Origin: Tubulanus polymorphus
Taxonomy: Eukaryota > Animalia > Nemertea
Direction: 5' to 3'
Assembly: GCF_964204645.1 (NCBI RefSeq)
Contig: NC_134030.1
Span: 13,182,957-13,246,956, forward strand
DNA length: 64,000 bases
The first letter of the stretch is position 1, and each line of letters starts with the position of its first letter. Positions 6,072 to 36,754 of this stretch are shown here, one piece after another. The position numbers were made by a program, and so were the translations under genes. Under the pieces are notes generated by a model, which saw nothing but the letters and a program-made list of their open reading frames with translations, did no database searches and was not told the DNA's origin.

Positions 6072-6086
6072 GCTCGAGAGGGACCA
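6072..6086 (-). promoter_or_regulatory. Primer-binding site (tRNA-Tyr-like) of the Bel/Pao element
   Basis: Minus strand TGGTCCCTCTCGAGC lies 3 nt after the LTR end CAACA. Confidence 0.65.
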
Positions 6087-6089
6087 CAA

Positions 6090-8296: not shown

Positions 8297-9235
8297 AAGT
8301 GACCACAGTCACCCCACATTACGGTAAATTATTTGTATCGAAGAAAACGGATTGATTTATTACAATAATTTGGTTAATCATTCTTCACATCACATTCCAC
8401 CATCCACATGCGTATAAATTTCAACAGATCCGACAGTACAGATTTTACATCTGAACAAAATTGTTATTCTTGAAAAACAGTAGACGATAATGCGGGTTCA
8501 TGTTCATAGTGGAGACTTCGCTCTCTAGTTGGCCTTTTAAAGCTGATATTTTTGCGTTCAGATTTTCGCAAAACACCTCATGTTTATTTCAACGAGGCCA
8601 CTTTCAAAATGCAGCTCCTTGGGAATTGGGCAATGGAAAAAGCTTTAATGAATGATTTATAAGAATATATGCTCAGTTGCAAAGTCAAAGAAACCCCAGT
8701 GAAGTTGGTTACTTGTACGTAGCTTATTCCTTATTCCGTTGCTTTTTCAAATATCTCCTCCAATAAGGAATATCGTGACTTTTCCCGATTTGGTTTTCCA
8801 CGTAACCGGTTCGACTTTTCTCGTTACATTATTATCAAAAGGGCGTATGAGGATCCGATGCAATCATCTCTGTACGGGGTTAAACACGGTCCGGGCACTT
8901 GAAGATCCGAGGAAATCATCCCTGTACACAGTCTGGGGCACGTCATAAATCTAGACAATCGACTGTGTGTGGGAAAAACGAACACTTCTGACTGTCAGCC
9001 ACAATGAAAAAGAATTGTATTACACATTTGCCTTTAGGGCTCGAGTCCGAGAAGCTCTAACAAGAGTAGCCTCGTTTATTTATGGCAACTAGAAGTTATG
9101 TTGCGATGTGTTGTTTATCCAAGTTTCTGTTAGGTCAACTTATATTTAAATCACTAAAGTATTTGAATCACGAAAAGTTGCGTCCGTGTCATTTTTTCCA
9201 TGTCTGATTCGAATCCGAATGAATATATGCGTCCC

Positions 9236-9316
9236 AGTAATAGGAAGATGTGGGTTTCGTACCAGAGGACAAGACACCACTCATCACCACAAGTAATTTT
9301 TTTCCTAATAAATGGG
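9236..9316 (+). repeat. Left TIR of the Polinton (contains the polB start codon at 9312)
   Basis: Reverse complement of 25237-25326, apart from an extra 8-bp GAGAGGAC unit on the right. Confidence 0.95.
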
Positions 9317-12300
9317 GGAGAATGAACACCAGCCAGAAAACAATAATGTTAATTAAAATCAATATTATTGCACATATTGTAAAAAATACGGTGATACATC
9401 TAATAAAACACGACATGAAAAAACTGCAAATCATATAAAAAAATGTAATAGATTTTGAAACTCCAGAAAATTCCAATGAAAGAAAAGAAAGATTAGAAAA
9501 TATGAATGTGGATGAAATAAAATGTGAAGTTTGTAATGAATTTATAGTAAAAAGGAATTATTATAGACATCTCGAATCACAAAAACACCATCAAAATTTG
9601 AGTAATAATGTTTTAGGAAAAGATTATTTTGATGATAAACTTCAAAAAGTAAAAAAAAACAACTTCAAAAACTAAATCCATTTCAAATAAACCTTACATG
9701 GAAAATGTTAGAAATTATATTGATTCACTAGAAATAAAAGATTCAATTGAAATTTTAGAAACATTACGTAGTAAAATTGGTCCTGCAGCTATTATATTTA
9801 GATTTTTTAAAGGTACAACAATAGAAGATTATAGTAAATTTAATGAAATAATAGAAAAAATATTAGATTTGATAACAGATGTTGAATATCCAAAAATTAA
9901 TATCTCTGGGAAAGTAAGTTTTTTAAAGTCAGAAGATAAAATGGATTATGATATTCAAACACTCTCTGAAGAAATAATTTCAAAAACACAAATAAAAGAG
10001 AAGTTAGAAAAAATATTTAATGAATTTAAACGTCATATTGAAGAAAGATATTTTGAGGGTTCTGGCTTAACATTGAATGAAATTATATTTTTAGATTTAA
10101 ATGTTTATAATACAAAAAGAAATAAGACATCAAAAAGTAATAAAATGTTTAAAAATGATTCAAACTTTACAACAGAAAAGGATATTAAAGCATCATCTTA
10201 TATTAAATTACCATTTACTACAAAAGCAGTAATAAATGTTCAAAATGAAGATAATAAATGTTTTCTATGGTCAATTATTAGTTGCTTACATCCAACACAG
10301 GAAAATGTTTGTAGAATAACAGATTATCGGAAATATGAAACATTATATAAAATTGATCAATATCCAGTAACTATATTTAAAAATGATTTCTGAAATAGAA
10401 AAAGTTAATAATTTAAAAATAAATGTATTCGAATTAATGCAATTACCAAAGACAAAAGGTGAAAATATTAAAGATTAAACATTGGAAGCTTTATATTTAA
10501 CAGAATATTATGATGATGAAAATGCTATAGATTTGTTATATTACAAAAAAGATGAAAATGAACAATATATGTGGTTAAAACAAATTGATTTATTCTTTAG
10601 AACAGAAAGTGATCATCATCATAAAATTTATCTATGTAGAAAATGTTTATCTAAATTTATGACTGAGAATACATTATTAAAACATAAAGAATTATGTGAT
10701 AATAAAGATTTTTGTAAATTAATAATGCCAACAGAAAGAGATTATAAATTGAAATTTACTAATCATAAATTTAAGAATATTGTTCCATTTGTAATTTATG
10801 GGGATTTTGAATCGTTGAATAAAGAATTAACTGATCAAGATAGAAAAGAAATATATAACAAAAAGCAATTATTAAAATCAATGGATAAAGTAAATGAATT
10901 AAATGAAGACACAACACAAGATCCGCCAATTATAAATACAATTAAAAAAGTTCATCAAAGAGCTGCTGCTTATGGAATTTATATAAAATCAAATTATCCT
11001 GAATTATATGAAAGTCAATATATTTCTTTTAGAGGTGAAGATGTAGTTAATGATTTTTGTAACAAAATGATTGAATTAGAAAGTGATTTTGCAAAATTAT
11101 TAAACAAAAATAAAAGAATATTTATGACAAAAGAAGATGAAATTGATTTTAATTATGCAACTCATTGTTGTTATTGTGAAAAACGTTTTTATTCATTTGA
11201 TAAAAAAGTTAGAGATCATGATCATTTAAATTCAAAATATCGTGGAGCTGCTCATGAAGATTGCAATTTACAAGCTAAGAAAGTTAATTTCGTCGCAATA
11301 TTATTTCATAATTTATCAGGCTATGATACCCATCTATTTATAAAACAATTATCAGGAAAATTGGGTTCAATTAATCAAGAAATAGAAGAATATAATGCTA
11401 TGAATGGTGTAAATGTAAGAAAATATGATTTTAAACTATTAGCTAAAACATCTGAAAATTATATTTCATTTCAATTTGGTTGCATTAGATTTTTAGATTC
11501 TTATAGATTTCTAGCAAGTTCATTAGATAATTTATTAAAAAGTTTAGTTGATAATGATTTTGTTATAACTCGATATTATTATCATTCATTATAGAATGGT
11601 AAAATTTTATCTAAAACAAGGAATGAAAATAAAGAAAGTACATAGATATATTGAATTTAATCAATCGAAGTGGTTAGAAAAATATATAGATTTCAATACT
11701 CAACAGAGAACCATATCAAAAACAGATTTTGAAAAAGATTTCTTCAAATTAATGAACAATAGTTTTTATGGAAAAACATGTGAAAATATTAGAAATAGAA
11801 ATGATATTGAATTAGTAAATAATTCTGAAAGATTAAGACATTTACAATCAAGCCCTAGACATTTAAGAAATAAAAGATTTGAAGATTATTTAACAGCAGT
11901 GAAATTAAAAAGAACGTCAATGAAATTTAATAAACCTATATTCATTGGTTCAACTGTTTTAGAAGTATCAAAATTATTAATGTATGATTTTTATTATAAT
12001 GTTTTACAACCACTTTTTGGGGAAAAGCATATTGAAATATTATATTTTGATTCTGTAACAGCTGATACCCCAATATTATTAAAATGTAATGATAAAATAT
12101 TGATAAGAAGAATTTCAGAAATAATTCCAAAACAAAATGAATGTTATATTTCATATGGTGAAAAAGAATTAATACAAATAAATGGTTTAATGGATGTTTG
12201 GACAAGAAATGGATGGAAAAAATTAAAGAATATTATTAGGCATAAAACAAATAAGAAAATCTATAGAGTTAGAACTAAATTAGGGTTTGTAGATGTTACA

Positions 12301-13408
12301 GAAGATCATAGTTTAATTAAACGGAATGGTAATGAAATAAAACCAACTGATATAAAAATTAGAGATGAATTATTACATAAAAGATTTTTCCAAAGAATGA
12401 ATCATATGTCATTTGATGAAATTATTAATTATATTTATAATATAGAGCCTGAAACATTAGAAGAAAAAGAATATTTTATCAAAGGATTTTTCATGGGTGA
12501 TGGTTCAGCAGGTGTGTATAATTATGTTTGGGGTAATAAATATTGTTGGTATTTATGCAATCAAGACTTAAAATTATTAGAAAGAATTAAGAAATTCTGT
12601 GAAGAAGTTTATTCACATAAAACATTTAGAATCATGGATGTTATGAAATCATCAGCAGTTTATAGAATACTTGTAAATAATCCTAAAGATTTTGCTATAA
12701 AATATAATGATGAATTCTATATTCACGCAATAGTGAAAAGTAATACTTCAACTAAAGAAAAGATTAGGTTTTAATATGAATATTGGATTGATTAAATCTA
12801 AACCAAATTGCTTTAATTTAAGCCATGTAGAAAATGAGTAAACAGAAGAAGTTAAGGATTTATTTGAAATATATAACCCATCAGATTATGTTTATGATTT
12901 ATCAACTGAAGATGGTACATTTAACTGTGGATTTCCATTAATAGCAGTCAATACGGATGCGTACATACTAAAAATCAAGACAAATGACATAACAAAAGAC
13001 TTAAAAACATTAAAACATCATTTTGATTTTAGCAATTATCCCAAAGATCATGAACTATTTAGCAATGATAATAAAAAGATTCCTGGTAAGTTTAAAGATG
13101 AATTAGGGGGTGATAAAATGATTGAATTTGTTGGGATAAGAAGTAAAATGTATAGTTACAGAACAAAAGATCATGAAGCTAAAAAGTTAAAAGGAATAAC
13201 AAAACATGTAGTTGATAAACATATAGAATTTCAAGATTATATAAAGTGTTTATATAACTCAATTGTAATGAAACATAAAATGAATTGTTTAAGATCAGAA
13301 GATCACGAGATGTACATTAATGAAGTTGAAAAAACTAGTTTAAATCCATTTGATGATAAAAGACATATTTCAGATGATGGTATAAAAACATTACCTTATG
13401 GTTATTAA
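9312..13408 (+). pseudogene. polB: Protein-primed family B DNA polymerase with N-terminal zinc fingers, an EndoVII-like Zn motif and an intein; stops, frameshifts and an internal deletion
   Basis: Exo I YGDFES; CCYC..RDHDH..YRGAAH..CN; Exo II FHNLSGYD; FLDSYRFL; motif B KLMNNSFYGK; motif C YFD/TD split by an intein; C-terminal PGKFKDE, RSKMYSY, KGI, DDKR. Motif A and Exo III are missing at a junction near 11580. Confidence 0.93.
12052..12952 (+). mobile_element. Intein with a partly deleted LAGLIDADG homing endonuclease, inserted in PolB motif C
   Basis: ILYFD|SVTADTPILL (block A); VDVTEDHSLI (block B, TxxH); FIKGFFMGDGS (LAGLIDADG block C); YVYDLSTEDGTFNCG (block F); LIAVN|TDAY (block G with +1 Thr). 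There is a frameshift near 12720-12735 and a TAA near 12839. Confidence 0.92.
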
Positions 13409-14078
13409 AATGGATCAATATCATCAAACTCGAAATCTCTATTGGTTTCTTCTTTTTCATTTAATTGTTCTTGTATAATTTGTTTAGGTTCTTCCATTTC
13501 ATTTTTCTCATTTAAATAACGTGTTATATTGTGCCACATTTCATCTTGCTCTCTTTGTTTCTTTTTGTTTGTTAATTCATCAAATGGAATTATAATATCT
13601 ATGTTTAAATAATTTAAAATCTTATTTAAAAAGAATTGATAATTAATTGAATCTGTTATTCTATTTTCCAAATGATACATTAATATTTGTTTGAATATTT
13701 TTTTTAATATTTTCCATATCTTCTTCTGTTAATTTAGGTTTTTCGTAATAATCGTTGAATAATAAATATAAATACATTTTCTTTTGTTTTGTGTTAAATG
13801 TTGATGGAATAATTGTTTTTATAATATCTTTTTTAGTTATTTCACCATTATTATTTTCTATTATTTTCATTTTTTCAAGCCATTGCTTATATTCTGGTGT
13901 ATGATCTTCTATTAAAAATATTTTAAAAATTTCATCTAGATAATTTAATTTTGGTTCTATGAGAAAATCTCTAGTTTTTTCTTCACCCCATAAATTCTTT
14001 TGCCATCCACATTCATTACAAAATAACACATTACCTTCTTGCCTTAAGGTCGCATAACTACATTGTGGACATTTTCAT
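13405..14078 (-). pseudogene. Poxvirus VLTF3/A2-like late transcription factor (zinc ribbon plus helical domain), with two 1-bp homopolymer frameshifts
   Basis: Reconstructed MKCPQC...LFCNECG...KLNYLDEIF...KLTEEDMENIKKIFKQILMY...SINYQFFLNKIL...QDEMW resembles vaccinia A2 as recalled (CSGC..CIFC..KLIHL..TINYSFFLDKIF..QLVW). Confidence 0.75.
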
Positions 14079-14730
14079 TTATAATTTATTGGTAATAGAT
14101 CTTTATTAAGCTCCTGGCATTTTCTTACGTTTTCTTTATGTTTTATTGTTCTATTATGTAGATTTGAATTACTTGTTGTAATAATCAATTTACAATATTT
14201 ACAATAATATGTTTTTCTTGTTAATTCATTATATTGTTTTTCTAACTTTTCAACTGTTTCTTTATTATCTGGTAACGTTTTCTCATATTTTACTTTTTCT
14301 AATAAACTATTTTTTCTTTCATTGAATTCATTTTCAAATTTATTAGAAATTTTATCTATATGTGCTTTACGAAATTGATGATTCTCCCAATCTTCTATAT
14401 TTTCAGGACTAAATTTCATTCGACAAGGTTCACAGAAATGATCTTTTGTATTATCCTTATCATAGAATAAGAAAGGTCTTATCCAAATAATATCAGGTTC
14501 AACTTCAACAGAATTACTATTACTTTCGTTACTATCAACATTAGCCGTTGCGCCATTAATTTTACACTTCTCTGAATGTTTTTAACATAATTTCTAGAGA
14601 ATAATTTATTACATTTTGGGCAGTTTATTTTAGGGGTTTTATAATTTTCATCATGTTTTTTCATATGTCGAGCCATATTACTTTTTCTTAGAAGTTCACC
14701 ACAAATTTCGCATGCTATCTTCTCGTCCAT
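14075..14730 (-). pseudogene. Multi-zinc-finger (C2H2/matrin-like) protein, frameshifted
   Basis: CEICGELLRKSNMARHMKKH, CPKCNK and CKYCKLIITTSNSNLHNRTIKH in adjacent ORFs 14479-14730 and 14075-14419. Confidence 0.7.
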
Positions 14731-14798
14731 TTATTAAGGAAAAATTTTATTACAATTAATTTTTAGTGATGAGCGGTAATTTTTTTATGTTATAAATA

Positions 14799-15587
14799 AT
14801 GGTAGAATTAAAAGAATACAGAATATTTGTTGATTCTAGAAAACTTACAAATTATAAATCACATAATTTACTAGTACAATTAGATAGAGAATTCAAGAAT
14901 TGTGTAGATTTAAAATTAGTTAATATAAGTTTATGTAATTCTTTTTATAATATAACGGATAAAACTGATGAACATAGAATCCTTTTTATTATTGATAAAA
15001 TTAGAAATAAACGGTTTCAACTTTATCTAACACCAGGATTATATAATTTAGAAACATTAGCGCAAGAAATTAATCGGAAAGCTCAGATTGTGTTAGGTAG
15101 TGATTCTAAATTTTCAATTAGATTTATAAAAAGTGATAGTTCTGATAAAATTAAAGTAAAGTTTGATGATGAAAATATTAGTCCTGATTCATTGATGTTA
15201 AGAAGACATGCTCACGCGGTAAAAAAACCTTTTGCTAAACTGTTAGGAATTCCTCCAGATAAACTTATTGTTGGAAACATATACGGTATATCAAATTTAA
15301 TACCTTTTACACATTTTAATATTTATTGTAATTTAATTGATCCTACAAAAACATTCGAAGCAACTAAAGATATAACTTGTAATTCTAGTATACTAAATAT
15401 TTTAGCATTGAAGAATGTTAAACAATTTGGAACGCAAATAAATCATAATTTAGCTGAATGTGATTTTAAACCTTGTATTCCTCAATTTAACAATTTTAAA
15501 TTAGAAATAAGAAATCATAATGGTTATTTAATTGATTTGAATAATTTTCCTGTGATATATGAATTAGTTACAAGATGTAGAGAGTAA
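14799..15587 (+). CDS. Minor capsid protein (penton, single jelly-roll)
   Basis: N-terminal IFVDSR...VQLDREF...LVNISLCNSFYNI, PGLYN, IYCNLID and C-terminal KLEIRNHNGYLIDLNNFP are typical of Polinton/PLV pentons. Confidence 0.75.
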   Translation: MVELKEYRIFVDSRKLTNYKSHNLLVQLDREFKNCVDLKLVNISLCNSFYNITDKTDEHRILFIIDKIRNKRFQLYLTPGLYNLETLAQEINRKAQIVLGSDSKFSIRFIKSDSSDKIKVKFDDENISPDSLMLRRHAHAVKKPFAKLLGIPPDKLIVGNIYGISNLIPFTHFNIYCNLIDPTKTFEATKDITCNSSILNILALKNVKQFGTQINHNLAECDFKPCIPQFNNFKLEIRNHNGYLIDLNNFPVIYELVTRCRE

Positions 15588-15603
15588 TTTTTTCATTATA
15601 TCA

Positions 15604-15831
15604 ATGAATATAACTGTTGGACCGAGTATATGTTTTGGGTTTGATTTTAAACGTGAGAAAGAAATGAAATTTAACATTAATGATGTAATTACAAAAATCA
15701 AAAATATTGCATTTTCTAATGAAACAACATTTAAGTATGAAAAAACAATAGATAAAGAAACTTTAAATGTAGAAAAGATTACTAATTTAATTAGAGAATC
15801 TTTAAGATTTTATGAATTTTATCATGGATGA
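15604..15831 (+). CDS. Polinton hypothetical protein (75 aa)
   Basis: Tightly packed ORF after the penton gene, preceded by a T-tract. Confidence 0.5.
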   Translation: MNITVGPSICFGFDFKREKEMKFNINDVITKIKNIAFSNETTFKYEKTIDKETLNVEKITNLIRESLRFYEFYHG

Positions 15832-15950
15832 TATTAAAAAAATAATAATTGAAATATATACAAATGAAACTAGTAATGAAATAAATGTTGAATTAATCAT
15901 AAATAAGTTAACTAAATATTTTGAAGATAGTAATTTTTTTTGATTAATAA

Positions 15951-16172
15951 ATGAGTGATAATAAGTGGATAATAACTGGATTATATAATGGCGCCTTACT
16001 ATCAGTTGGAACTGTTGGTTATTCAATGGTATTAAAAAAAGTATTTAAAATGGGAAGTGTTAATGTTGATAGATTTGATATAAATGATATCTTAAAATCA
16101 ACATTAGCAGTTACTTTATCCAATTTAACTATTGATTATTTGGAAAAACAAAAATATATTCCTCCCATATAA
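15951..16172 (+). CDS. Small hydrophobic Polinton protein (73 aa)
   Basis: TAAATG start; hydrophobic segment GLYNGALLSVGTVGYSMVL. Confidence 0.65.
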   Translation: MSDNKWIITGLYNGALLSVGTVGYSMVLKKVFKMGSVNVDRFDINDILKSTLAVTLSNLTIDYLEKQKYIPPI

Positions 16173-16196
16173 ATGCATAATTTTTTTGTTCAATAA

Positions 16197-16617
16197 ATGG
16201 CTTCTGCAATTATAACTATTATAGGATCAGCAATTGTTAACGCTTTAGCATTTACTGGTGGTGGTTATTTATTTAAACATATTGATAAAAATGGATCATT
16301 GACAGAACAAAAAAGACATAACTTAGCATTAGAAAAATATAATAAAGCAGCAGAAGAATAAAGAGAAAAGAAGCAAAACTATATGGATTATATTAACAAA
16401 GAATTATATGATCAGAAGATTTCACATAGAGATTTTCAATCAGTCGATGATGCAATGAGTTTATATAACGCGGTAACCAATAAAGAAAAATTACATCTAC
16501 ATAAACCTACAATATCAGATTATTATACCCCAAGTAAAGAACAACAGAAATATGAAATAATTTGGATTTTAGGTTGAACAGTTATTGTTATATTTGTAGC
16601 ATATAAGTTTACTAATT
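16197..16617 (+). pseudogene. Polinton protein with N- and C-terminal hydrophobic helices; internal stops
   Basis: MASAIITIIGSAIVNALAFTGGGYLF...EQKRHNLALEKY; TAA near 16360 and TGA near 16575. The mini-element copy has GGA at the latter site. Confidence 0.7.
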
Positions 16618-16638
16618 AGTAATTTTTTTTCTAAATAA

Positions 16639-17073
16639 ATGGAAGATAAAGTTGATGATATTGATATTATTCCTCATGATATCAGTAAAACTAAATTAAA
16701 AATATATTTAGAAAAACAAATATTATAATTTGAAAATGACTTAAAAGTTAAAAAGAAAAAATATTTAAAAAGTAAAATTATATATTATCTTATTATTAGT
16801 GGTTCGGTTACAAATAGTTGTGAAATAACATTTCTAGCAATATTCAGTCCATTAACACCTTTAGCTATATCAATTGGTGTGTTAGGATTATGTTCAAGTG
16901 TTTTAACTGGTATAAGTTCAAAATTAAATATAAAAAGTAATAAAGAAAAAATTAAAACTAATTTAAAAGAAATTGATAAATTAAAAAATACACTAGATTA
17001 TATAATAAGTTTAAATGGTCATATAACAGTTGAAGAACAAGATAAATTATTAAAAGAATTAGTTAATTATTAA
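16639..17073 (+). pseudogene. Two-TM membrane protein with a premature stop (GAA to TAA relative to 2337-2771)
   Basis: Direct comparison with the intact copy in the mini-element. Confidence 0.8.
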
Positions 17074-17089
17074 TTTTTTTATTATATAA

Positions 17090-18399
17090 ATGGGGTTTCC
17101 AAAAGCTTTCCAATATAATAAATCACATGAATATTATAAATATAATACTCCAGCAATAGATTTTAGTAACATGATAATATATAAAAATTTAGTTTTGCTT
17201 TCATTGATTAATTTAGAAATTTATGTTACTGAAACAAACTATTTTATTTCTAAAATGGAAAATATATTTAATACATATGAAGTTACTTTTACTAGAGATG
17301 AATATAATATATATAAAGTAAAATCTAATATGAAATATTGGCAGAATCAATTAAATTTTGCTGTTCCTTGTGCAACAGCTGGTTGTGGTGTAAGTTGGCA
17401 TGATCACTTGAATAACTTAGATAAAAATTTGAAATATTCTGATTTAAAATTCATTCATACAATATTTAGATTTCATGTATACTTTCAAATTAGAATTATA
17501 TTAAATGAATTAGAATGCCCTTTACCTGGATCAAAATATTTTAAAGAATTGGATAATAATATTAATCTATCTAAGTTTTATAAAATATGTAATGAATTTA
17601 ATATAAATATTAATTTCGATTTTAGAGCGCATGGTAGATTACATGGCGTTGGTGAAGAGTATGAAATAAAAAGAATTGATTATATGCATAGAATTTCAGC
17701 TTATCATAATTATAAAATTGATAATAATAATGGTTGGGTTTATTTTATTGAATCTTATAGTGAAGGATTTACAAAACCTGGTATACAAAGAATAAATCAA
17801 TCAATTAGAACTTATTTGATATGTATTTTAGGTGCGCAAGTTGAAACAAGATCACCAATAGTTGGAAATAATAGTACTTCATTCGATGCGCAGAAACAAT
17901 TCAAAGTATTATTTGAAGATTCCATTCATACTGATAAAAATAGATCGATTCCAGAAAACATTGTAAGATATCAAAATTATTTAGATAAATCTCATGTAAG
18001 ACTAAATTATTGTATAGGCCCTAATCTATTAATTATTTCTTATGATTTAGTATTAAAGATGGGAAACATAATTGGTTACAATAATCTAATCAACACTGCA
18101 ACATAAATAATTCAATTGGATTAAATGATATAAATAAAACGATTATTACTGCTCCAAAATTAACGGAAGGCGAAAAAAATAAAAAACATATCCAATCAAC
18201 AGAAACTAAAACAAAGAATATTAAATTAAATAATGATTCTAAAATAAAAGATTACAATACGTCAGAAAATATAAAAACTGATACTATTCAACATGTTATA
18301 ATTAAAACTGATAATGATAATAAATTCCATGAAAATACTAAATTAGCTTTAACTTGTATAGGAATTGTTATAGGAGGAATATTATATTTTAAATTTTAA
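17090..18399 (+). pseudogene. Polinton hypothetical protein with a probable C-terminal membrane anchor (ORF 17090-18106 plus a shifted tail)
   Basis: WQNQLNFAV.CATAGCGVSW.DHL and FRFHVYFQIR motifs; the downstream frame ends KLALTCIGIVIGGILYFKF*. Confidence 0.6.
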
Positions 18400-18415
18400 T
18401 TTTTGTATTATATAA

Positions 18416-19865
18416 ATGGATGTAGAAGGTGGAGAAGATATTGGAATGGATCCTTTTGATGAACCTGGTATAACTGATGAACAACAACCTGATTTAGTGA
18501 AACAAGTTTTAATGACGGTAATGAGCCAGAATATAATAATAATTTAAATATGCCTGATTATATTAAAAATGCAGAATCACAATTGAATCCTGAAAATTTA
18601 GACCCATATTTAGTAAAACAAGATTTAGATAATTTAAACAAAATACCTAAATTAGAGGATTTAATTGAAAAATCTAAACTTAACATAAATGATGAAGACG
18701 TTGGACCTTTAGCAGATCAATAAAAATTTTTAGATAATGGTAAATGTTATTATCGTTTGAAAGATGATTATTATATTGATATCACTTATAAAAAAAAATA
18801 ATAACAAAATCAATTTTGAGAAAATTAGATCCAGATAGAATTAAAAGAATTATTAATAGTAATGTAATAACTGATGTTATAAAACAAGAAAGAGATGATA
18901 ATATAGACGTATTTAAACAAAGAATTAATGAATTATTTGAAATAATCAAAAAGAAATCAGAAACAGAAACTTCTGAACATAATATAACTTCCAAAACTAG
19001 TAAACTTAAATCAAATAAAGTTCCAATTGAAAAACTTTTACCGAATGGATTAATTGATGTAACAGATCAACAATTAGAAGATTTAAATAATATATTTTCT
19101 GTTGAAGCAATTAGAGAAATTAAAAGTATAAGACTTGCATCTGATAAAATTGCACATGATAAAAGTATAGGAGATTTTAAAATTAGAACTTTAGAAAAAG
19201 AATTAACTGATAAAAATAAAGAAATAGAACAATTAAAGTCTGATTTAGATCATCAAGTAATTGATGAAATAGAATATAGGCAAAAAGAATTACGTTTAGA
19301 AAAAGAAATTAATAATTTAAAAGATAATTTAGAAGTACAGAAAGAAGAAATTAAATTATTATTAAAATCATATGATTATAATATTAATAGATTAAAAGTT
19401 ATTTTTAAAGATTTATTGATAAAACCAAATTCTGAAATATTATTAAAAGATAGAATAAAGTTATTATTTAAATTAGAAGGAATAACAATTCTTTCAATTC
19501 TAACAGCTGTAACTATGTTATTTACAACAATTGGTTTAGCAATATCAAAAGCTTTGAAATCTACTCCTACTCCCAATAAACCGGATAAACCCCCGAATGA
19601 TAATTATTCTATACAAGATAAAGTTAAAGATGGTTTAAAGAAATTAGCAAAATATTTATGGCGACTATCTAAAAAATCTGCTGCAGCTTTACCAGGAATT
19701 ATTGCATCAATTGTTGGTTTTATATTGAAATCTGCAGGTAATATTCTTAACTTTGCTGCTGAACATATTATTTTATTTTTAATTACAGTTGTAAGTGCTA
19801 TTATTTTTGGGTTAGTGAATATGATATCAAAAAGATATCAAGAAAAAATAATAAAAAATAAATAA
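18416..19865 (+). pseudogene. Coiled-coil protein with C-terminal TM/amphipathic helices; 5' part disrupted
   Basis: TAAATG start (MDVEGGEDIG); long coiled coil; GITILSILTAVTMLFTTIGLAI and AAALPGIIASIVGFIL...LFLITVVSAIIFGLV. Confidence 0.7.
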
Positions 19866-19885
19866 TTAATTTTTTTGTTAAATAA

Positions 19886-21133
19886 ATGAGTGGGAATTAT
19901 ATAAGTCCTTCTAAGATTTCTAGAATATCTAATGCTATTAAAGCAGAAAGATCACATCATATAATTACTCATAATCCTTCAAATATTAATCCCGATGAAA
20001 CTTTATATGTTAGAATTCCTAGATTAACACAAAATACTTTTTATGTTCCAAATAGTATTTATTTATCAACCGATATAAAAGTAACCGGTCATGATAATAA
20101 TTATGTTGTTGATAATGTTGGAAGATATTTGATTAAAAAATTAACTATTAAGATTGGTCCAGAAACAGTTTTCTCATTAGATGATTATAATTTATTTATG
20201 CATTATAAAGATTTATGGTTAACTAAAGAAAATAGAAATAATATGATATTTCAAGGCATTGAATCGGAAAACCATAATAAATTAAGATCAGGAGCTAATG
20301 ACGCAATAGTAACTCGTGCCGCAGATAATTTGATTAAAAATATTTATGGAAGCAAATATAAAATTCCATTAGACTTTGAATTGATAAATAATAATGCACC
20401 TTTATATAAATATGTAATTCAAGAAGATATTATATTTGAGATAACATTTGCTCCTGTAAATGAAATTGTATTATCTAGCGTTGTTAAAGATATGGGTTAT
20501 AAATTATCGAATATATGTTTAGAATATGACAGAGTAACTAATGAAAATATTGCTAACACAATTCAAACTCAATACAATCAAGGATTTTCATTATTATATG
20601 ATTATATTGATAAATCTAAAACTGTAACTATTAATGCAAATGATGAAAAAATTAATGAGAATATTAACTTCCCAAGAAGATCTATTAAAGGTATATTAAT
20701 ATTTTTTACCATTGCAACATATTCTAATGGTGCAATAAAGGTTGATAATTATTATAATCCTGAAATAACAAAAGTAGAAATAACTATCGAAGGAATAGCA
20801 AATAAAATATTTTGTCAAGGAATGAGAATGATTGATCAATGGCCAGAAATTAGAAAACATTTTATGAATGAAAAAGTAAAATCATTTGAAAATTGTAATA
20901 TTAATCAAATTGATTATTATACCGGCCATCAATATGCATTATGGTTAGATTTTAGAACAACAGAGGATAATTCATTACATGGTTCTAGAAAAAAACTACA
21001 GAACACTAAAGATGGAATACAATTATTCATGAAAAAGAAAAAAGGAAGCTTAAATTTTAAAATGCACATTTATATTATATCTGACGCACAATTAAATATT
21101 GTAAATCCACAATTAGATAGTATTCAATATTAG
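19886..21133 (+). CDS. Major capsid protein (double jelly-roll), open
   Basis: 415 aa; HNPSNINPDETLYVRIPRL, VVDNVGRYLIKKL, YKIPLDF, NINFPRRSIKGIL, YALWLDFRT..D..LHGS; size and position next to integrase and ATPase. Confidence 0.8.
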   Translation: MSGNYISPSKISRISNAIKAERSHHIITHNPSNINPDETLYVRIPRLTQNTFYVPNSIYLSTDIKVTGHDNNYVVDNVGRYLIKKLTIKIGPETVFSLDDYNLFMHYKDLWLTKENRNNMIFQGIESENHNKLRSGANDAIVTRAADNLIKNIYGSKYKIPLDFELINNNAPLYKYVIQEDIIFEITFAPVNEIVLSSVVKDMGYKLSNICLEYDRVTNENIANTIQTQYNQGFSLLYDYIDKSKTVTINANDEKINENINFPRRSIKGILIFFTIATYSNGAIKVDNYYNPEITKVEITIEGIANKIFCQGMRMIDQWPEIRKHFMNEKVKSFENCNINQIDYYTGHQYALWLDFRTTEDNSLHGSRKKLQNTKDGIQLFMKKKKGSLNFKMHIYIISDAQLNIVNPQLDSIQY

Positions 21134-21163
21134 AAATATAAAGTTAATAATAACGATATATAA

Positions 21164-22282
21164 ATGGGCGGTAAAAAAACTCCTAATACTAAAGAACAAT
21201 ATTTAAGAAATTTATATTACAACCCTGAGAGTTCGGTTACTTTTTCTTCTACCAAAAATATATGGCGTCAAGTAAAACAAGATAAATTAGATAAGATAAT
21301 CCCACAAAATTTAGTTAAATATAAAGATATAAACGAATTTATGTTAGAACAACCAACATATACAACACATAAAAAAATTGTTAGAAAATATAAAACTCGT
21401 AAAACTATGGTAAGTTATGTAGATCAACAGTGGCAAGGAGATTTAATTGATATGAAAAATGTTAAGAAACATAATGATGATTATTGGTGGTTATTGAATA
21501 TAATTGATATTTTTAGTCGTTATGTATGGAGCTTCCCACTTTATAGAAAAGATGCTGTACAAACATCAAATGTTTTAAGAAAATTTCTTTCGGATGATAA
21601 ACTAAAACCAGAAAAAATACAATTTGATGATGGAAAAGAGTTTGATAATTCACTTGTTTATGAACTCTTAGATAATCATAATATTAAACATTTTTCAACA
21701 AAATCGGATAAAAAAGCAGCAGTTGTTGAACGATTTAATAGAACAAGAATGTGGAAATATTTTACAGCAAATAATACTTTTAAATGGATTGATGTTTTAC
21801 CAAAATTGATAGAAGGATATAATAACTCTTATCATTCTTCTATTGGAATGAAAACTATTGATGCTAGAAAACCTGAAAATGCTGAAATTGTTTGGAATAA
21901 TTTATATGGAGCATTTCTTGTAGATGATTTTGGTGAACCTAAATTTAAAGTTGGTCAAAAGGTTAGAATTTCTAAGTATAAAAAGATATTTGATAAAGGA
22001 TACGATCGAAATTTTACTAGAGAAATATATAAAATAAAAAAGGTTATAACAACAAAACCATATGTCTATAAATTAGAAGATTTAGATAGTGAAGAAGTTG
22101 ATGGGTATTTTTACGAAGAAGAATTAAGTTTAACTACTGAAAATCTAGAACAAGAATATAAAATTGAAAAAGTATTAAAAACAAAAACTATTAAAAGAAA
22201 AAAATATTCTTTAGTAAAATGGGTTGGATGGCCAGATAAATTCAATGAATGGATATTGTCAAGTAAAATTAAAAATATATAA
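21164..22282 (+). CDS. Retroviral-like (rve) integrase with a C-terminal chromodomain
   Basis: DDE triad WQGDLIDM / QFDDGKEF / VVERFNRT; KFKVGQKVRI; chromodomain YKIEKVL...LVKWVGWPDKFNEWI. Confidence 0.95.
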   Translation: MGGKKTPNTKEQYLRNLYYNPESSVTFSSTKNIWRQVKQDKLDKIIPQNLVKYKDINEFMLEQPTYTTHKKIVRKYKTRKTMVSYVDQQWQGDLIDMKNVKKHNDDYWWLLNIIDIFSRYVWSFPLYRKDAVQTSNVLRKFLSDDKLKPEKIQFDDGKEFDNSLVYELLDNHNIKHFSTKSDKKAAVVERFNRTRMWKYFTANNTFKWIDVLPKLIEGYNNSYHSSIGMKTIDARKPENAEIVWNNLYGAFLVDDFGEPKFKVGQKVRISKYKKIFDKGYDRNFTREIYKIKKVITTKPYVYKLEDLDSEEVDGYFYEEELSLTTENLEQEYKIEKVLKTKTIKRKKYSLVKWVGWPDKFNEWILSSKIKNI

Positions 22283-22891
22283 ATGAATAAGGAATTATTT
22301 ATATTTTAACCTCATAATATGTTAATTTCTGGTGTAACAAATTGTGGAAAAACTTATTTTATATTAAATTTATTAGAAACTGTTTATAAAAACTACTTTG
22401 ATAATATAGTATTATTTTGTCCAACATATGAATTTAATCAAACTTATGATAGAAATATTACTAGAGATAATAAATTTATTATATTAGATCCTAAAACAGT
22501 AAAAGAAAATTTAGATAATTGTATTAAAATAGCAATAGATATTTATAAAGGATCAAATACATTATTCATTATAGATGATTGTGCAAATTTACATGATTCA
22601 AAAGTTAGAGAAAGTGAGTTATGTTATCTAGCTTTCTCTGGGAGACATTTCGCGATAACAACATGGGTTTTAAATCAAAAATATAATTCAATTGTTAAAG
22701 ACTTTAGAGAAAACATTAGATTTCTAGTTTTATTCTACAATAAAGATAGAAAATCGATGAAAAATGCACTTGAGGAAAATGATATTATTCTACATGATTT
22801 ACATAATGAATATATGGATAAGTTGAAAAATATTAAAAGATCAAAATTACTATTTAGATTACAACACCCATTTAAATATGAATTTATTTAA
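22283..22891 (+). pseudogene. A32/FtsK-like packaging ATPase (early TAA at 22307; ORF 22319-22891 open)
   Basis: Walker A GVTNCGKT, Walker B LFIIDD, SGRH arginine motif, conserved Q (LNQKY). Confidence 0.9.
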
Positions 22892-23166
22892 ATTCAACTA
22901 GCTTGTTAATCTAGTTGAATTCTAGTTGAATTCTAGTTATTGGTAGTTGGAACAAAAATCAACTAGATTTAACAATATTTTAACTAGCTTGTTAATCTAG
23001 TTTAATTCTAGTTACATTCTAGTTGAATTCTAGTTGTTAGTAGTTGGAACAAGAATCAACTAGATTTAACAAAGATAAACAAAAACAACAATATTTCAAC
23101 TAACTTGTTAATCTAGTTGAATTCTAATTACATTCTAGTTAAATTATAGTTGCAACATTACAACTA
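22892..23166. repeat. Intergenic array of palindromic AACTAG/CTAGTT repeats (about three higher-order units)
   Basis: CAACTAGCTTGTTAATCTAGTTG followed by 11-bp TTCTAGTTGAA subunits, repeated near 22895, 22982 and 23097. Confidence 0.85.
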
Positions 23167-23183
23167 ATTTTTTTGTTATATAA

Positions 23184-23877
23184 ATGGGAGGTGAAAAGAA
23201 AATAAAATCTAAAAATGGTGATGTTCCAATTGAAAAAACTTTAGATGATTTAGGAATAACAGAAAACAAATTAATTCCAGATGATGGTGCTTTAAATAAT
23301 GTTACAACAAATAATAATTATGAATATTATCTTTATTGTAAACATCAATTAGAAATATTAATAGCATCTGGAAAATGTAAAAATTTTATCGGTAAAAATT
23401 TAACTTATAATGAATTAGATACAATGAAATCAGATGAAATTATTAGATTATTTAAGATTTATGAAGCCGCGAGAACAGCTAGAATTAATGACGCGATATC
23501 AGGAAGTGTAGTAAAAGGTTATAGTAAATTATGTAATTATATGCTGCCAATTGAAGATGAAAATAGATTATAATCCGATTTAAAAAATGATTATTTAGTA
23601 ATTAGGAATTAAATCACAAGAATATAAAAAAGCTGTAAAAGAAAAAATAAGTAATAAAAATGGTGAAAATATTGTTATTTCTACTCCTTCTAATAATAGA
23701 ATATTTGATAAATGTCTATATTTTACAGTTGGATTTGTAATTGTATTCATTTTGATTGGGTGTAATTGGTATAAGAAATCAAATAAAATTCATGATATTT
23801 ATAATTCTGAAACAACTGCTATCAAAAATGAAAATACTTCTGAAATTCCAAAATTGATAATAAAAAAATGGATTAAT
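23184..23877 (+). pseudogene. Polinton hypothetical protein (129-aa ORF plus a disrupted tail with a TM segment)
   Basis: TAAATG start; a downstream frame contains CLYFTVGFVIVFILIGC. Confidence 0.55.
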
Positions 23878-23960
23878 ATTTTAGAAAAAAAGGAAAAAAA
23901 ATAATTGAATATCTCACTACTTTTGTCTGTCTATGCGGAGCAATTAAATTGTCCAGATAA

Positions 23961-24908
23961 GTCATTTCGGATTCTAGATATTCATTATTTTTATTAATTT
24001 ATCTTGTTTTTTTAATTTGAAGTTTTTACTTGAACATTGTATTACAGTCGTTTCTTATTATTAGTTTTTTTTAAATTGAAAGATGGCAGCACTGGGTGTG
24101 ATGCTAAAATGAATATTTGAATTTGAATTTGAATTTGTTAACCAATTAACATGGTAATTGATTACTAATTTGATTAAAAATTATATCATAATTAAGTTAA
24201 AAATCCATAATTCATTTATCAGTTTTCATTCCTATATTCTTTTCATTCGGAATAATTTATAATTTCAAATTTCACATATTTTTTTAGCACCAACAACATT
24301 CACTTAGGTGTTTTAGCTAAGTATTTAAGGCAATTCATTCGACCACTGGAGTGCCGCCGGGCTTGGCTTGCAGGGGCATTTCGAAAATGCACCTTTGTCC
24401 ACCCTCCGTGGTTCTCCTTCAGTTTCGACTTTCGATCCTCCTTTCGGGGGTAAGGGGTTGATAGGAAATGCATTAGGCGCCTTTAATATAATGTGTTTCC
24501 TGTCAACCATTGAAGGAGAATTGGTGAGGTGTAGGTCACAGGGGTGTAATTAGAAATGCTTGGGGATAGGTATCTCGTGGCGCCTCTCTATAACGGGATG
24601 CTTATCCCCTAAAAACTCTGTGAGTCAAGTCGGGTGGTTTTGCTAAAACTTACCGTAAAAACATTGAAATATTCCTTTTAATCACGAGAGAGAATGTATC
24701 CTCCTGTCTTGTGTGTGTTGTATGTACTGCGTGCTTATTATATTACTGCTATAACAACAACGTTGAATTGCAACACCTGTTTGATCGATCAATATTCAAA
24801 TCAAGCACTCTCTTATAATAACATGTAACAGATGTTTGACCGTATGATTGTAGTTGTTTGTAAAACGACTAAGGTCATTTTGGATTCTAGATATTCATTA
24901 TTTTTATT
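23961..24908. other. Cassette bounded by 35-bp direct repeats
   Basis: GTCATTTYGGATTCTAGATATTCATTATTTTTATT at 23961-23995 and 24874-24908 (one mismatch). Confidence 0.85.
24310..24650 (+). ncRNA. Putative structured RNA of unknown family with two GGCGCC-loop hairpins
   Basis: Nested stems read by eye: 24310-17/24642-49; 24336-43/24629-36; 24412-23/24509-20; 24456-75/24489-508; 24536-43/24616-23; 24562-78/24593-609. Non-Watson-Crick pairs are G-U on the plus strand. Confidence 0.6.
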
Positions 24909-24914
24909 TTTCAT

Positions 24915-25241
24915 TTAATCAACTATTTCTAAATCATGATGACCGTCTTCATTTTTCCCATGGTAGATTATTTTAAATCCTTCTAAATCTTTTAATTCCT
25001 CTGTACTCAATGAAACCCATTTTTCGGGTAAAAATACTTTAAATTCTCGCGATGTACTAACATTACAGTAGCTTAAATTCGCTGATACTTTCTCTCCATA
25101 TTTAGTTTTTATCTTTTCTAATTTCAATATTTTATGTTCAATTTCTTTTGTAACATCAACTAACTTTTTTAATTTCAAATTGTTTTTTGCTGGTTTAATT
25201 CTGTTATTTATTGTTGCTAAGAATGCTTTTCTATCTCCCAT
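24915..25241 (-). CDS. Polinton right-end protein (108 aa), possibly an OB-fold ssDNA-binding protein
   Basis: Start codon lies in the right TIR; beta-rich KTKYGEKV...FKVFLP...IIYHG pattern. The function is inference only. Confidence 0.6.
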   Translation of the reverse strand: MGDRKAFLATINNRIKPAKNNLKLKKLVDVTKEIEHKILKLEKIKTKYGEKVSANLSYCNVSTSREFKVFLPEKWVSLSTEELKDLEGFKIIYHGKNEDGHHDLEIVD

Positions 25242-25326
25242 TTATTAGGAAAAAAAATTACTTGTGGTGATGAGTGGTGTCTCGTCCTCTCGTCCTCTGG
25301 TACGAAACCCACATCTTCCTATTACT
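25237..25326 (-). repeat. Right TIR of the Polinton
   Basis: Ends ...CACATCTTCCTATTACT, followed by the TSD CGTCCC. Confidence 0.95.
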
Positions 25327-26575: not shown

Positions 26576-29500
26576 AACGCAGTCTCAAATGTTTTGTGAT
26601 TTTCTCAAAATGTATCAAAAATTTAAGTAATTTTTAGTTCATAAGTCTTCAAATATTCATAAATGAACAGTTAAAAATTGTTGAAACATGTCGACTCAGC
26701 CGTAAAATTAACCCATTCACAGTCCCGAATGTGGGATAATGTCGGGCTTTAGAGAACATAATGCCCCCGAGGTCTTCACATTTACAGATAAGATTATATA
26801 AGCGTGTCGCGCGTTACACCGGATAGGCACACAATAGAAATATGAGCCGCACTTTCATTGATCATCACCAATTAAGAGGACCGCTATTGTGAAAATTGAC
26901 TGCGGGAGGAATATTCCTCCCAAAGTCAATCGATGGAAACTTGACCAAGGGGTCTGATATTCAAACAATTGACTTTGGGAGGAATATTCCCCCCACGGTC
27001 AAACGAAGAGAATTTGACCTTCAGTTCTGATATTCAAAGTATCGAATATTCCTCCGACTGTCAAACGAAAGAAAATGGACCTAGGTCTGATATTCGAAAT
27101 ATTGACTTTGGGATGAATATTCGTCCAAACCTCTAACGCTAAAAACCTGAGCTTTTAGAATGATAGGTCAACATAAATGATATTGATGTAATTGTTTTTA
27201 ATAAATAGTATACTATAGAGACGAAACCAGACATATTTAGGCAATTTGATTGTTAATATACACTGTATTTGAGGGTCTGCGACAAATAATTTTAGAAAGT
27301 TAAATAGCTGTAGTACAGGTTCTAATAACGAGCCTAATACCAGACCTGAGTCAAATTAAGCCGAGTCATATTAGAGCGTGTTAATTTAAACTGGTTCTGG
27401 AAGTCAGTCCCTTCGCTTAGCATAAGTAAGGACTCGTTTTAGAGTCTCTTCAAGCATTGTTTAGTATCGAATGAATGGGTTTGCATTTGAATTTGAAATA
27501 AATTTGAACATGAAAATCAGCGCGCTCTTTGGTAAGCCATGAAAACAATTAAAGTCGGACCCTGATTCGAGCCAATTTGTTTGCAAATTAGCCATTGTCC
27601 TAGTTTTAACTTCTGATTTGTATCCTGTATAGGCCGGTTCATATTTCTGTTTGTACTCTTTCATAGAAATTCGACAGATATCAAATGGCATCTTAGATTA
27701 CAGACACTGTTGACCGGTACACACCAATATGTCCATCCATCCGACATACGAGCAATTATCTCATTAATGAAATAATTACTCGTAGATCCGACAGCTACGT
27801 TTTACAACTAGAAATGCATAAAATCAGATTCCTAATGATATTACATGTATTACTATTAAGAATAAGCTATTAATTATGAATAAATTCAAAAAGAATTGAG
27901 AAAATATCTTGCTTTGAATGGCTTTTAATTAAATATTGGAAAGGGCGATTTTGAAGGGGGAATTTTATCTGCGGTGTCACTGCTAATCGAGTAATCAAGA
28001 AGCACAAACTCCCTAAGGTGATAAAGTGTTTTAAGCAGATCTTTTCAGATTGTGATCCCAATATATGAATTGCACATGGAACTGTTATGTATAAACACCT
28101 CTCACAATTTACGTAATGACTGAGTGGCATCCTGTTGCACAAGCTATATTACACCATGATGAAAAGCCTTTTATAGTTTAGAGTTGGATTTCTCGATGTA
28201 TAAATGCAAGGAGGGTCAGAAGCTTTATGCTCAATAACATTAGGTTCCTTTAAATGTTTGCTATGGATTTCAAAATAAAAGAAAAATCTACGTTTAAATG
28301 AGATATCTGTTTCATTACTCGTGATATATCGAGGAATCTCTGCAATAAAATTTGACGATTTCAAAATTATTACAAAATGAGCAAACTTTGTGATATCTGC
28401 TAACAGTATAAATTCAAGCGTATATGCGGATTTGCGTGATATGTAATAAATATCGTAGCGAATAATCAAAGTGAAAAAAGTATCTACCGTAGCTAGAGAT
28501 GATAATGAGTCCCATATCCAGAATATCTGAACCAAAATATCTCCCTCAAAAAATCTTGAACCATTCAAAAAAACATAGGAATATGGTTGTAGGTAAAAAT
28601 CCCCTAGGTAAATATCCCCTGTGTAAAAACCCAAAATATTCAAAATAGGTAAAAATCCCCACTCGGTGATTTTCAAAGACATTTCAAAGACGTAAAACTC
28701 TTAGCATAAAATAAATTGTTAGAATTGATAAGAATAATACATTTTTATTTGTAATATCTAAAGATTCGAACAGGAGTATTTTTAAACTGCGGACTCTTGT
28801 TAACTGTGGTATATTTCAGCTGTGCGATGCCAAAAATTATTAGAAATAATGTTCTTTTGATTTGAAATATTTTAGATTCAAGCTAGTGTAATATATATGA
28901 AATGTGCGATGAACCCTTTCATTAAGCTGTGCGATCACTTTATTTACCAATTTAGTAGTAATGAACAATGTTAATTTTGTAGTATGTTTTAATTCAAATA
29001 GTATATACTATAGTTTGTATACTCATGATATCATTATGGTATTTCACAGTAAAATATGAATAAATTGGATATATGTATCAATAATATGAATTAATTGACC
29101 TTAAGATTGTATCTACAATCCATTCAAAAGGAGGGGGATTTCTACCTACACTAAAGAATCGGGGATTTTTACCGAGAGGATTTTAACCTAGGGGATTGTT
29201 ACCTAGGGTATTTTTTACCCAGATGATTTTTGCCGCTAACCATAGATGTAGTTTGTAATTTTGAATAATGGTCTTGGCAATGCACTAACTATGAACAATT
29301 TACTTTGTTTTGTTGAATTAACTGCTTGTAATCAATTCACTATAGAACTATGGTGGATCCTAACATTGAGTCTGGCCTGCTATTCTCTTTCCGAAAATTA
29401 TATTGCTAAGATATTCCTAGTCTTCATCATTTAGCATGAACTCTAGATGTTGGGCCTGGATATATTTCGGATTCATTAAATGGTATCACGGGCGTGGAAT

Positions 29501-32500: not shown

Positions 32501-32654
32501 TTCGGGACTGTGAATGGGTTAATTTTACGGCTGAGTCGACATGTTTCAACAATTTTTAACTGTTCATTTATGAATATTTGAAGACTTATGAACTAAAAAT
32601 TACTTAAATTTTTGATACATTTTGAGAAAGTCACAAAACATTTGAGACTGCGTT
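26576..32654. mobile_element. Non-autonomous foldback-type DNA transposon with ~570-bp TIRs and a 4-bp TSD (GCAG)
   Basis: Termini AACGCAGTCTCAAATG...CATTTGAGACTGCGTT; GCAG at 26572-75 and 32655-58; TIRs hold ~49-bp tandem units with the palindrome GGGAGGAATATTCCTCCC; removing the element restores the LINE frame. Confidence 0.9.
27583..31395. mobile_element. Nested TIR element (possibly Kolobok-like) inside the foldback element
   Basis: 22-bp inverted repeat GCAAATTAGCCATTGTCCTAGT at 27583-27604 and 31366-31387; the right end is followed by GACC-TTAA; also present in copy 2 (38482 and 42282). Confidence 0.5.
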
Positions 32655-33714
32655 GCAGATAGAATCTACAAAATATTAACGTCGGCGGCTGGAACAGATG
32701 ATGCGCGCGATAGAAAAAAGTTCGTACGTGCACACCGTGTCGGAAAATATAGTGCTTTTAGAACGTTTATCCTGATATGAGACTAACTTTACCTGAACAA
32801 CCGCTTGTTCCAATTCAATGCGAAAGATTCAATGTACCCATGCGGAATTAATAAGACAGAGATGGACAGGCAGATTGTTATCGATCGCGAACAGAGGCAC
32901 AATAGCGATGTCAGTGACGTGAGTGATGCCTTGCGAGAGGCACGTGCCACCCTCGATATGGAATTAGAAAGCGTCGGAAATAATATTACCGCGGAACGAT
33001 TGAAACTCAGTTTCTTGAATATTAAAGGACTATTCAACTATAATTTACGATGACGCGATAAAACCATTCGATGAAGCGATCATACGATCAATGAGCACTG
33101 GGCTTAAGGCAGGGTATTGAATTATTAGAAAATAACCATCCTGATATTTCATGGGGGAAATTATCAAAACAATTCTTCAATTTTGAAAGTTATTTGTTTA
33201 TTTGTTTAGTGTTCGTAGCTTGTGATATTCGTATTCTAAGTTTACGTGTCACCAACAACCAGGTGGCAAAAGTGTGGTCGATTATGTTCTAGCCGATTTT
33301 AACATGATTGATATACTGTCTGACTTTCACGTGTCTGACGAATAACCTTAACAACTGTTAGCCATAATCAGGCGTACTGAGAACAATCGAATCAAATAAC
33401 AGGATCATTTATTCAAGAATATGACAAATGATAATGATTAAAGGATTAAGATTATTGATAATGATGTTTTATTTACGAATTAAATTACAATATAAAGTAG
33501 TAGGAATTAGTACAAAATATTGTAAAATAGGACGTTGGACGACAGGTGAAGTTAAAATAAACTTATTACCTGAGAGGCCCAGTCGCCCACACACTCACAT
33601 TCACGCCCCATTCATACATGCAAGTTACATGACAAAAACATTCAACATAGAAAATATGATAATTCCAGGATATTCAGTATATTAGATTGATCAATTAGAA
33701 GTACATAATTTCAT

Positions 33715-36634: not shown

Positions 36635-36754
36635 TTTTTAGTTTTCTTTTCACTCGGCTTCTCGGCAGAAGTTGGGGTCTCTGATAGTGACCTTGTCTAA
36701 AGATTAAAGTAATTAAATAACAAAAACCGGAACATTAAGGAAGAAAACAAAGAA

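Follow-up and report, generated by a model that had tools for sequence, protein, structure and literature searches.

The SRP (7SL) and 7SK RNAs, both about 300 nt long, are made by RNA polymerase III (Pol III) and pair their ends over long range, the VA RNAs are about 160 nt long, and in phi29 pRNA two different complementary loops join molecules. VA RNA is described as a decoy made by Pol III that has a terminal stem and ends in U4 (PMC7589676, in part). A GGCGCC palindrome contributes to the dimerisation of MMTV RNA (PMC4264320, in part), a six-base palindromic loop drives oskar mRNA dimers and granule assembly (PMC11567897, in part), and designed RNAs with palindromic loops condense (PMC11567899, in part). 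phi29 pRNA is a stand-alone RNA whose loops join molecules into rings or cages. The bacterial self-assembling RNAs ROOL, GOLLD and OLE (PMC12286853, in part) and manA (10.64898/2026.07.01.735769, in part) do the same. No Polinton-encoded structured RNA is described in the literature covered, which comprised titles and opening abstracts, with supplements and most subscription papers outside its scope. Maverick and adintovirus papers checked by term make no mention, in their available parts, of non-coding, VA RNA or polymerase III.

Within the window, the whole 64-kb stretch of DNA analyzed here, lies what is, on sequence grounds, an uncatalogued RNA-like element in a Polinton. Its host at 9236..25326 (no strand assigned) is a Polinton/Maverick by its ends and its genes. 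The TIRs (9236-9319 and 25234-25326) are identical at 83 of 84 positions, and the same 6 bp flank the element on both sides, a 6-bp target duplication. It carries an rve integrase ORF (21164-22282; PF00665, E 2e-10), an A32 packaging ATPase ORF (22310-22891; PF04665, E 5e-12), a capsid-like ORF (19886-21133) and a pPolB split over several frames, with PolB-type motifs seen by eye in the split ORFs. Among the Atlas look-alikes of the capsid-like ORF (0.97-0.98) are clusters in which 14-24% of the members have Capsid_N, which is a lead only; Pfam and PDB searches gave no match to a double jelly-roll capsid or a protein-primed polymerase B in the Polinton. The structured unit sits between the last plus-strand ORF (end 23904), about 450 nt past it, and the right TIR, and shares its strand with pPolB, capsid, integrase and ATPase.

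The surroundings hold several further features. The third catalytic motif of PolB is broken by an intein-like insert (11569-13408; PF14890, E 5.7e-6, below the curated cut-off), which holds a homing-endonuclease-like stretch seen by eye; the Polinton papers checked by term make no mention of an intein in their available parts. At 22863-23152, directly 3′ of the ATPase gene, 11-bp repeats with a period of 86-110 bp form three blocks, possibly a regulatory region of the Polinton. The same Polinton family is also represented at 1972-4900, in the opposite orientation, by a distinct copy that has lost internal sequence and has short inverted ends of its own. BEL/Pao-type LTR retrotransposon pieces (DUF1758, DUF1759) lie around this copy at 458-1726 and 5032-6066 and make an animal host genome likely. 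A third, inverted piece of the capsid-like gene (53676-54240) shares 85-90% identity with 20283-20849. At 26576-32654 and 36755-43430 lie a pair of related elements, each about 6 kb long, whose long inverted ends hold 73-bp tandem units, every unit being an internal palindrome. At 48040-48430, just upstream of a gag-like ORF at 48497, about seven spaced motif copies read on the minus strand as a tRNA T-arm or B box, where ARAGORN called no tRNA.

The unit was originally noticed in a sequence-only reading as a GC-richer island that folds into a closed multibranch structure. In a GC scan of 1976-25310 (4900-9250 left out), the top 200-nt windows do fall at the unit, with 0.49 at 24326 vs about 0.22-0.25 in the coding part. 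Folding of 24310-24650 gave -161.3 kcal/mol (z -9.64) on the plus strand and -98.5 (z -4.27) on the minus strand, and 0 of 100 shuffles were as good on either strand; the comparison with shuffled controls that the sequence-only reading had named thus came out in its favor. The core structured unit, our proposed transcript of about 289 nt (24353..24641, plus strand; boundaries inferred), pairs its 5′ end with its 3′ end and then runs into U4. It folds at -150.9 kcal/mol, with z -12.6 on plus and -4.9 on minus under RNA energies, and z -7.8 on plus vs -3.4 on minus under DNA energies, so that the strand contrast is larger with RNA energies. A coarse fold scan of the Polinton (52 windows, step 450, none centred on the unit) reached only z -2.9. 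A candidate second structure at 24101-24300 was set aside when its z of -5.7 (10 shuffles) fell to -1.5 and -2.2 (200 shuffles).

The best fold of the core has 109 bp, and its only symmetric mismatches are G.G, C.U and G.G. That the non-canonical pairs would all be G-U and none A-C proved truer than had been claimed, with 21 G-U pairs and no A.C (binomial p about 1e-6). This excludes the symmetric decay of a DNA palindrome. The same bias had been taken as a sign of selection on RNA, but it cannot separate RNA from single-stranded DNA, because DNA energies also favor the plus strand. We consider it very probable that the structure has been selected on a single strand, and probable that this selection acted on RNA.

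In the predicted fold the 5′ strand of the terminal stem (24353..24375, plus) forms 6 bp with 24633-38 and, beyond a G.G mismatch, 16 bp with 24616-31, before the helix opens into a three-way junction. One branch is hairpin B (24562..24609, plus), set off by linkers of 2 and 6 nt, with a 17-bp stem (24562-78/24593-609) and a 14-nt loop that starts with GGCGCC (24579-84) and has an AAUA end in sister copies. The other branch, joined with no linker, is a long rod whose 5′ strand (24376..24423, plus) makes 7+11+2+2+4+15 bp with 24509-24559 at mean pair probabilities of 0.96-1.00. At the distal junction are two small side hairpins of 4 bp and 5 bp (24425..24450, plus), and the 3′ strand of stem A is continuous with the 15-bp helix, again with no linker. 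Hairpin A itself (24456..24508, plus) has a 20-bp stem (24456-75/24489-508) and a 13-nt loop that starts with GGCGCC (24476-81) and ends in AAUA.

Stems A and B had been predicted exactly, with their loops, and both form with a pair probability of 1.00; the enclosing stem proposed at 24412-23/24509-20 is right and lengthens to 15 bp (24409-23/24509-23). Two other proposals, the stem 24536-43/24616-23 and a local 5′ domain, occur in an alternative that is 18.6 kcal/mol less stable. Their strands pair over long range in the best fold (24360-75/24616-31 and 24388-98/24538-48), and the C found at 24621 in most sister contigs would be A.C in the former stem vs G-C in the best fold. The small hairpin at 24437-50 is predicted (5 bp, P 0.79), but its loop reads UUUC, not UUCG as first reported, and it appears to be absent from one sister subfamily. 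An outermost stem of 8 bp, the inverted repeat with its left arm at 24310..24317 (no strand assigned) and its partner at 24642-24649, does form in silico when included (P 0.99-1.0). It probably lies outside the transcript, since the TATA-like box and the T4 run described below would both fall inside it; a longer RNA than about 289 nt is possible.

The linkers suggest coaxial stacking along the rod, which would carry loop A about 61 bp of helix from the three-way junction. Junction-family rules, taken together with the linkers, are the basis for placing hairpin B, which would lie back beside the terminal stem. Loops A and B are thus predicted to point apart, a geometry that favors pairing between molecules over pairing within one. 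Since the loops cap opposite ends, a head-to-head kiss within one molecule would need a sharp fold-back, and no junction clearly offers it. Both loop palindromes are predicted to be unpaired (P 0.87-1.0), so that the predicted fold twice exposes a self-complementary hexamer in a hairpin loop, as in DIS-type elements; a GGCGCC hexamer duplex is worth -11.7 kcal/mol. GGCGCC occurs three times in the 64 kb, twice in these loops and once in a coding frame. On this model we give even odds that the palindromic loops pair between molecules. At their best register, stems A and B share 8 of 17 pairs and differ on both sides at 6; shared loop ends on such unlike stems are as expected from a hairpin duplication with only the loop held constant, and they are our best argument that the loops matter. 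A search of the window for an antisense target returned only chance matches of 11-15 nt.

Sister contigs of the unit came from the same organism, in runs of one study on two samples, of which three and four runs were compared. Of five sequencing runs listed, four contain the stretch; one run, guessed to be RNA, yielded 0 contigs, which says nothing about expression. One contig, 381 nt long, covers the unit and has 4 differences, and other contigs differ by about 5-16%, while one 700-nt contig aligns over only 82 nt, which points to a still more distant subfamily. The 32 substitutions considered (31 table rows plus 24621) include 8 at unpaired sites, 15 that keep a pair with the window's partner and 9 that break it unless the partner changes. 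Seven of these nine have their partner off the contig or in an unlisted end zone; two are real breaks (24446, 24520). Transitions at paired sites keep the pair in 15 of 18 cases vs 0.60 expected (p = 0.03, among related copies and with an ambiguous alignment at 24520-33). These counts give modest support to the view that sister variation mostly respects the stems. In stem B of the diverged subfamily, three G-U pairs have become Watson-Crick and one A-U has become G-U; in the 5′ loose end of that subfamily, judged by eye, there is a double change from G-C to A-U at 24457/24507 and the second side hairpin is apparently lost.

None of the 32 listed substitutions falls in the 12 palindrome positions, which is not significant (about 0.26 by hand; 12 of 289 positions), and for the most diverged subfamily the table of listed changes does not reach loop A. 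The listed loop changes (24484, 24586 and 24589) spare the palindromes. At 24589 the window is the odd one, with T where A was found at all listed depth in three runs; both loops therefore end in AAUA in the sister family, where each reads GGCGCC, 3-4 nt, AAUA. An alternative palindrome in a homolog would be a direct sign of kissing. No other palindrome occurs in the loops among the sister copies listed, whose divergence is small. The constant AAUA, which kissing leaves unexplained, may point to protein binding.

We then looked at signals for transcription. A TATA-like box (24322..24328, plus) lies at -31 from the proposed start, and a T4 run (24638..24641, plus), a candidate Pol III terminator in a G/C context, follows right after the terminal stem and is also kept in the 3′ loose end of the diverged subfamily. 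Both kinds of signal are common in the AT-rich Polinton, the TATA-like motif occurring there 2.2 times per kb. It is true, as had been remarked, that 24315-24637 is free of T4, but this is ordinary in a Polinton with 184 T4 runs and at least 6 longer gaps of 337-561 nt. An A-box-like match at 24364-75 is obtained only by a pattern relaxed after the fact. The B-box-like TTCGATCC reported at 24431 is indeed there, but it lacks the leading G, matches at only 8 of 9 positions and differs further in one sister subfamily; the canonical box B, GWTCRANNC, has 0 matches in the unit. Together the TATA-like box, the paired ends and the T4 run would make up the layout of a Pol III gene, each signal being weak alone, and we lean slightly toward a stand-alone Pol III gene. 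Candidate plus-strand polyadenylation signals lie upstream of the unit at 23859, 23943 and 24173, so an upstream mRNA may end before it, and there is no AATAAA or ATTAAA on the plus strand between the unit and the Polinton end. The longest ATG frame on the plus strand across the unit has 24 codons.

The unit is framed by 35-bp direct repeats that lie 913 bp apart. The left copy (23961..23995, no strand assigned) contains a minus-strand AATAAA; the right copy (24874..24908, no strand assigned) is 97% identical and, with the AATAAA of the repeat, lies immediately beyond the stop codon of ORF 24915-25241 on the minus strand. In contigs of this organism 23974-23982 is joined to 24907-25124, so that copies without the 913-bp block exist. 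In run X4 the summed depth, which does not equal copy number, was about 30,000-47,000 just outside the block vs 2,000-10,000 inside it. Run X1 showed a small contrast in this measure between inside and outside, and a greater depth over the unit (about 660-1380) than over the left part of the block (about 100-340); depth is again not copy number, and this suggests that the unit may occur in other contexts. One contig continues with unlike sequence past 24648.

Related Polinton fragments without the unit imply that it is not a core Polinton gene. One related Polinton, L121, has the same capsid-integrase-ATPase order and, after two small ORFs, a deoxynucleoside kinase gene (10340-10981; PF01712, E 1.7e-31), which follows the ATPase block where the window's element has its RNA-bearing block. 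The kinase gene at the corresponding place suggests that this position takes accessory cargo. Four copies of a 7-bp motif, GCTAAAA or its complement, lie in a 550-bp span around the unit (24103, 24282, 24311, 24642), and the motif could be a DNA-binding site; a 12-bp version is not enriched in the window.

Searches for known families began with Rfam, which gave 0 matches at E up to 1 over 1.4 kb and 0 at the gathering score in the whole window. The view that the unit is not a known family thus withstood the Rfam check proposed with it. ARAGORN found 0 tRNA in the window, and the unit shows neither a C box nor an Sm site nor a telomere template. Its sequence has no poly(A) tail and, on either strand, no hammerhead core CUGANGA; no Rfam ribozyme matches it. 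A tRNA- or 7SL-derived SINE was rejected on the absence of ARAGORN and Rfam matches and on the single copy in 64 kb, and SRP or 7SK RNA on the absence of a covariance-model match in Rfam. A retrozyme or viroid-like RNA was dropped for want of a hammerhead core or Rfam ribozyme, and a microRNA precursor because the stems vary while the loops stay.

The remaining 64 kb holds no second copy of the unit, and blastn of the unit against phages and plasmids gave no match. A strict twin-GGCGCC pattern hit 2 viral and 10 prokaryotic loci, with a stem over 2 bp at the motif in 0 of 12; a loose pattern hit at least 120 loci in the 23 of 64 parts of the viral contigs that were scanned. At no loose-pattern locus did the loop motif sit on a stem of at least 5 bp, and two such loci had a chance stem of 9-10 bp. 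Searches of viral contigs with the ATPase, an ATPase alignment and the capsid found no related Polintons. Metagenome contigs yielded 8 related Polinton loci, all partial, 6 of them close (61-81% ATPase identity), and in these partial loci there was no GGCGCC and no match to the unit. L121, a partial element of 11.5 kb, has no GC island, and 200-nt fold scans of L122-L126 (10 shuffles) had a best z of -3.8. Across the phage, plasmid, viral, prokaryotic and metagenome contigs searched, no homolog of the unit was found outside this organism.

Compared with the systems introduced above, the unit resembles VA RNA I/II in being a small structured unit in a linear DNA virus-type element, with paired ends, four 3′ U and long imperfect duplex stems, which might work as a decoy (PMC7589676, in part). 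The VA-type terminal stem and the four U that follow it are represented here by 24353-58/24633-38 and the T4 at 24638-41. In contrast to VA RNA, the unit is about 289 nt long, has no canonical box B, a box A only by a relaxed pattern and no Rfam match, and is optional among copies. Twin palindromic loops are not among the conserved VA elements in the available part of the source (PMC7589676). The VA-RNA-like reading offered at the outset therefore fits in its paired ends and U4, but not in its internal B box. Nothing in the analysis points to the packaging-RNA role offered beside it.

With DIS and oskar SL2b the unit shares a GC-rich six-base palindrome in a hairpin loop, which there pairs with a second molecule (PMC11567897, in part). 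DIS, the MMTV PBS palindrome and oskar SL2b lie within long genomic or messenger RNAs, whereas the unit is short (PMC4264320 and PMC11567897, in part). It also differs from the DIS type in its two matching loops, the palindrome at the 5′ edge of loops of 13-14 nt, the constant AAUA and a valence of two; DIS-type loops have 9 nt (PMC11567899, in part). ROOL, GOLLD, OLE and manA are, in the available parts of their sources, prokaryotic or phage motifs, and neither they nor phi29 pRNA match the unit in Rfam. Unlike SRP and 7SK RNAs, the unit has 13-14-nt loops on two long hairpins instead of GNRA tetraloops, and no Rfam match. By analogy, it would work like a VA RNA plus two DIS-type stickers, as a member of neither family.

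Our best reading of the locus, to which we assign a probability of roughly 0.4, is that of a stand-alone non-coding RNA of about 289 nt, probably made by Pol III, whose loops would pair between molecules. The optional block near the right end of the Polinton would carry its gene, and host Pol III would read it, as the TATA-like box at -31, a G start, the paired ends and the U4 end suggest. The product would fold as a long G-U-rich rod with its two GGCGCC loops pointing apart, and these sticky loops would join molecules into dimers, rings or chains. An abundant, imperfectly double-stranded multimer of this kind could, as a decoy or sponge, occupy Dicer and the host sensors of double-stranded RNA during periods when the Polinton is active, a purpose that we infer by analogy with VA RNA in adenovirus.

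Other explanations account for parts of this evidence. A stand-alone RNA might use its loops as twin protein-binding sites, as a bivalent sponge or adaptor, with the palindrome incidental or paired intramolecularly. The loop pattern common to both loops goes beyond the palindrome to the whole of GGCGCC, 3-4 nt and AAUA, the sister copies show no alternative palindrome, and the position of the hexamer at the 5′ edge of a 13-14-nt loop is unlike the 9-nt DIS-type loops (PMC11567899, in part). However, a GC-only six-base palindrome exposed twice, with a duplex at -11.7 kcal/mol, is of the kissing-loop type and our analysis points to no protein partner, and we consider this explanation unlikely. 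The unit could also belong to the 3′ end region of a long plus-strand Polinton mRNA and act there in cis, serving export, localization or dimerisation like a retroviral CTE or the oskar 3′ UTR hairpin; it is on the strand of pPolB, capsid, integrase and ATPase, 450 nt past the last plus-strand ORF, the Pol III signals are weak, and the oskar palindromic loop sits in a 3′ UTR (PMC11567897, in part). This seems distinctly unlikely, given polyadenylation signals upstream (23859, 23943, 24173) but no AATAAA or ATTAAA on the plus strand downstream to the Polinton end, and a self-closed fold whose terminal stem is followed directly by U4.

The optional block invites a third account: a mobile RNA-based parasite, as also raised in the sequence-only reading, or a SINE-like unit captured from the host would have entered a single Polinton lineage and been carried along by it. 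Its support is indirect: the 35-bp direct repeat flanking the 913-bp block, the contigs that join across it, the excess depth of the unit over the block's left part in run X1 (depth not being copy number) and the contig with unlike sequence after 24648. A 35-bp duplication is long for a SINE, however, and there is no hammerhead core on either strand, no Rfam ribozyme, tRNA or SRP match, no poly(A) tail and no second copy in the remaining 64 kb, all of which make a mobile unit quite improbable. Polintons are thought to pass through a single-stranded DNA stage, DNA energies also favor the plus strand (z -7.8 vs -3.4), and an 8-bp inverted repeat frames 24310-24649, so that we also weighed a role at the DNA level only, for a structure in single-stranded DNA or for a palindromic insert of the MITE kind. 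The 8-bp repeats show no target duplication, the fold is multibranched and nested with no mirror repeat, palindrome decay is excluded by 21 G-U vs 0 A.C and the strand contrast is larger with RNA energies, which leaves a purely DNA-level role with a very slight chance.

The furthest extension of our best reading, which we hold as a doubtful proposal, is that the Polinton encodes a short RNA whose two identical sticky ends let it assemble by itself into rings, chains or droplets in host cells, as a functional forerunner of or parallel to VA RNA. Should the unit be transcribed, Polintons have an RNA gene beside their proteins, which would argue that they meet RNA-sensing host defences as active viruses do and would bear on the origin of adenovirus-type decoy RNAs. 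If its loops kiss, it would be a natural short eukaryotic RNA with two identical sticky ends and, if it self-assembles, a naturally occurring RNA building block of valence two that stems from a DNA virus lineage of eukaryotes.
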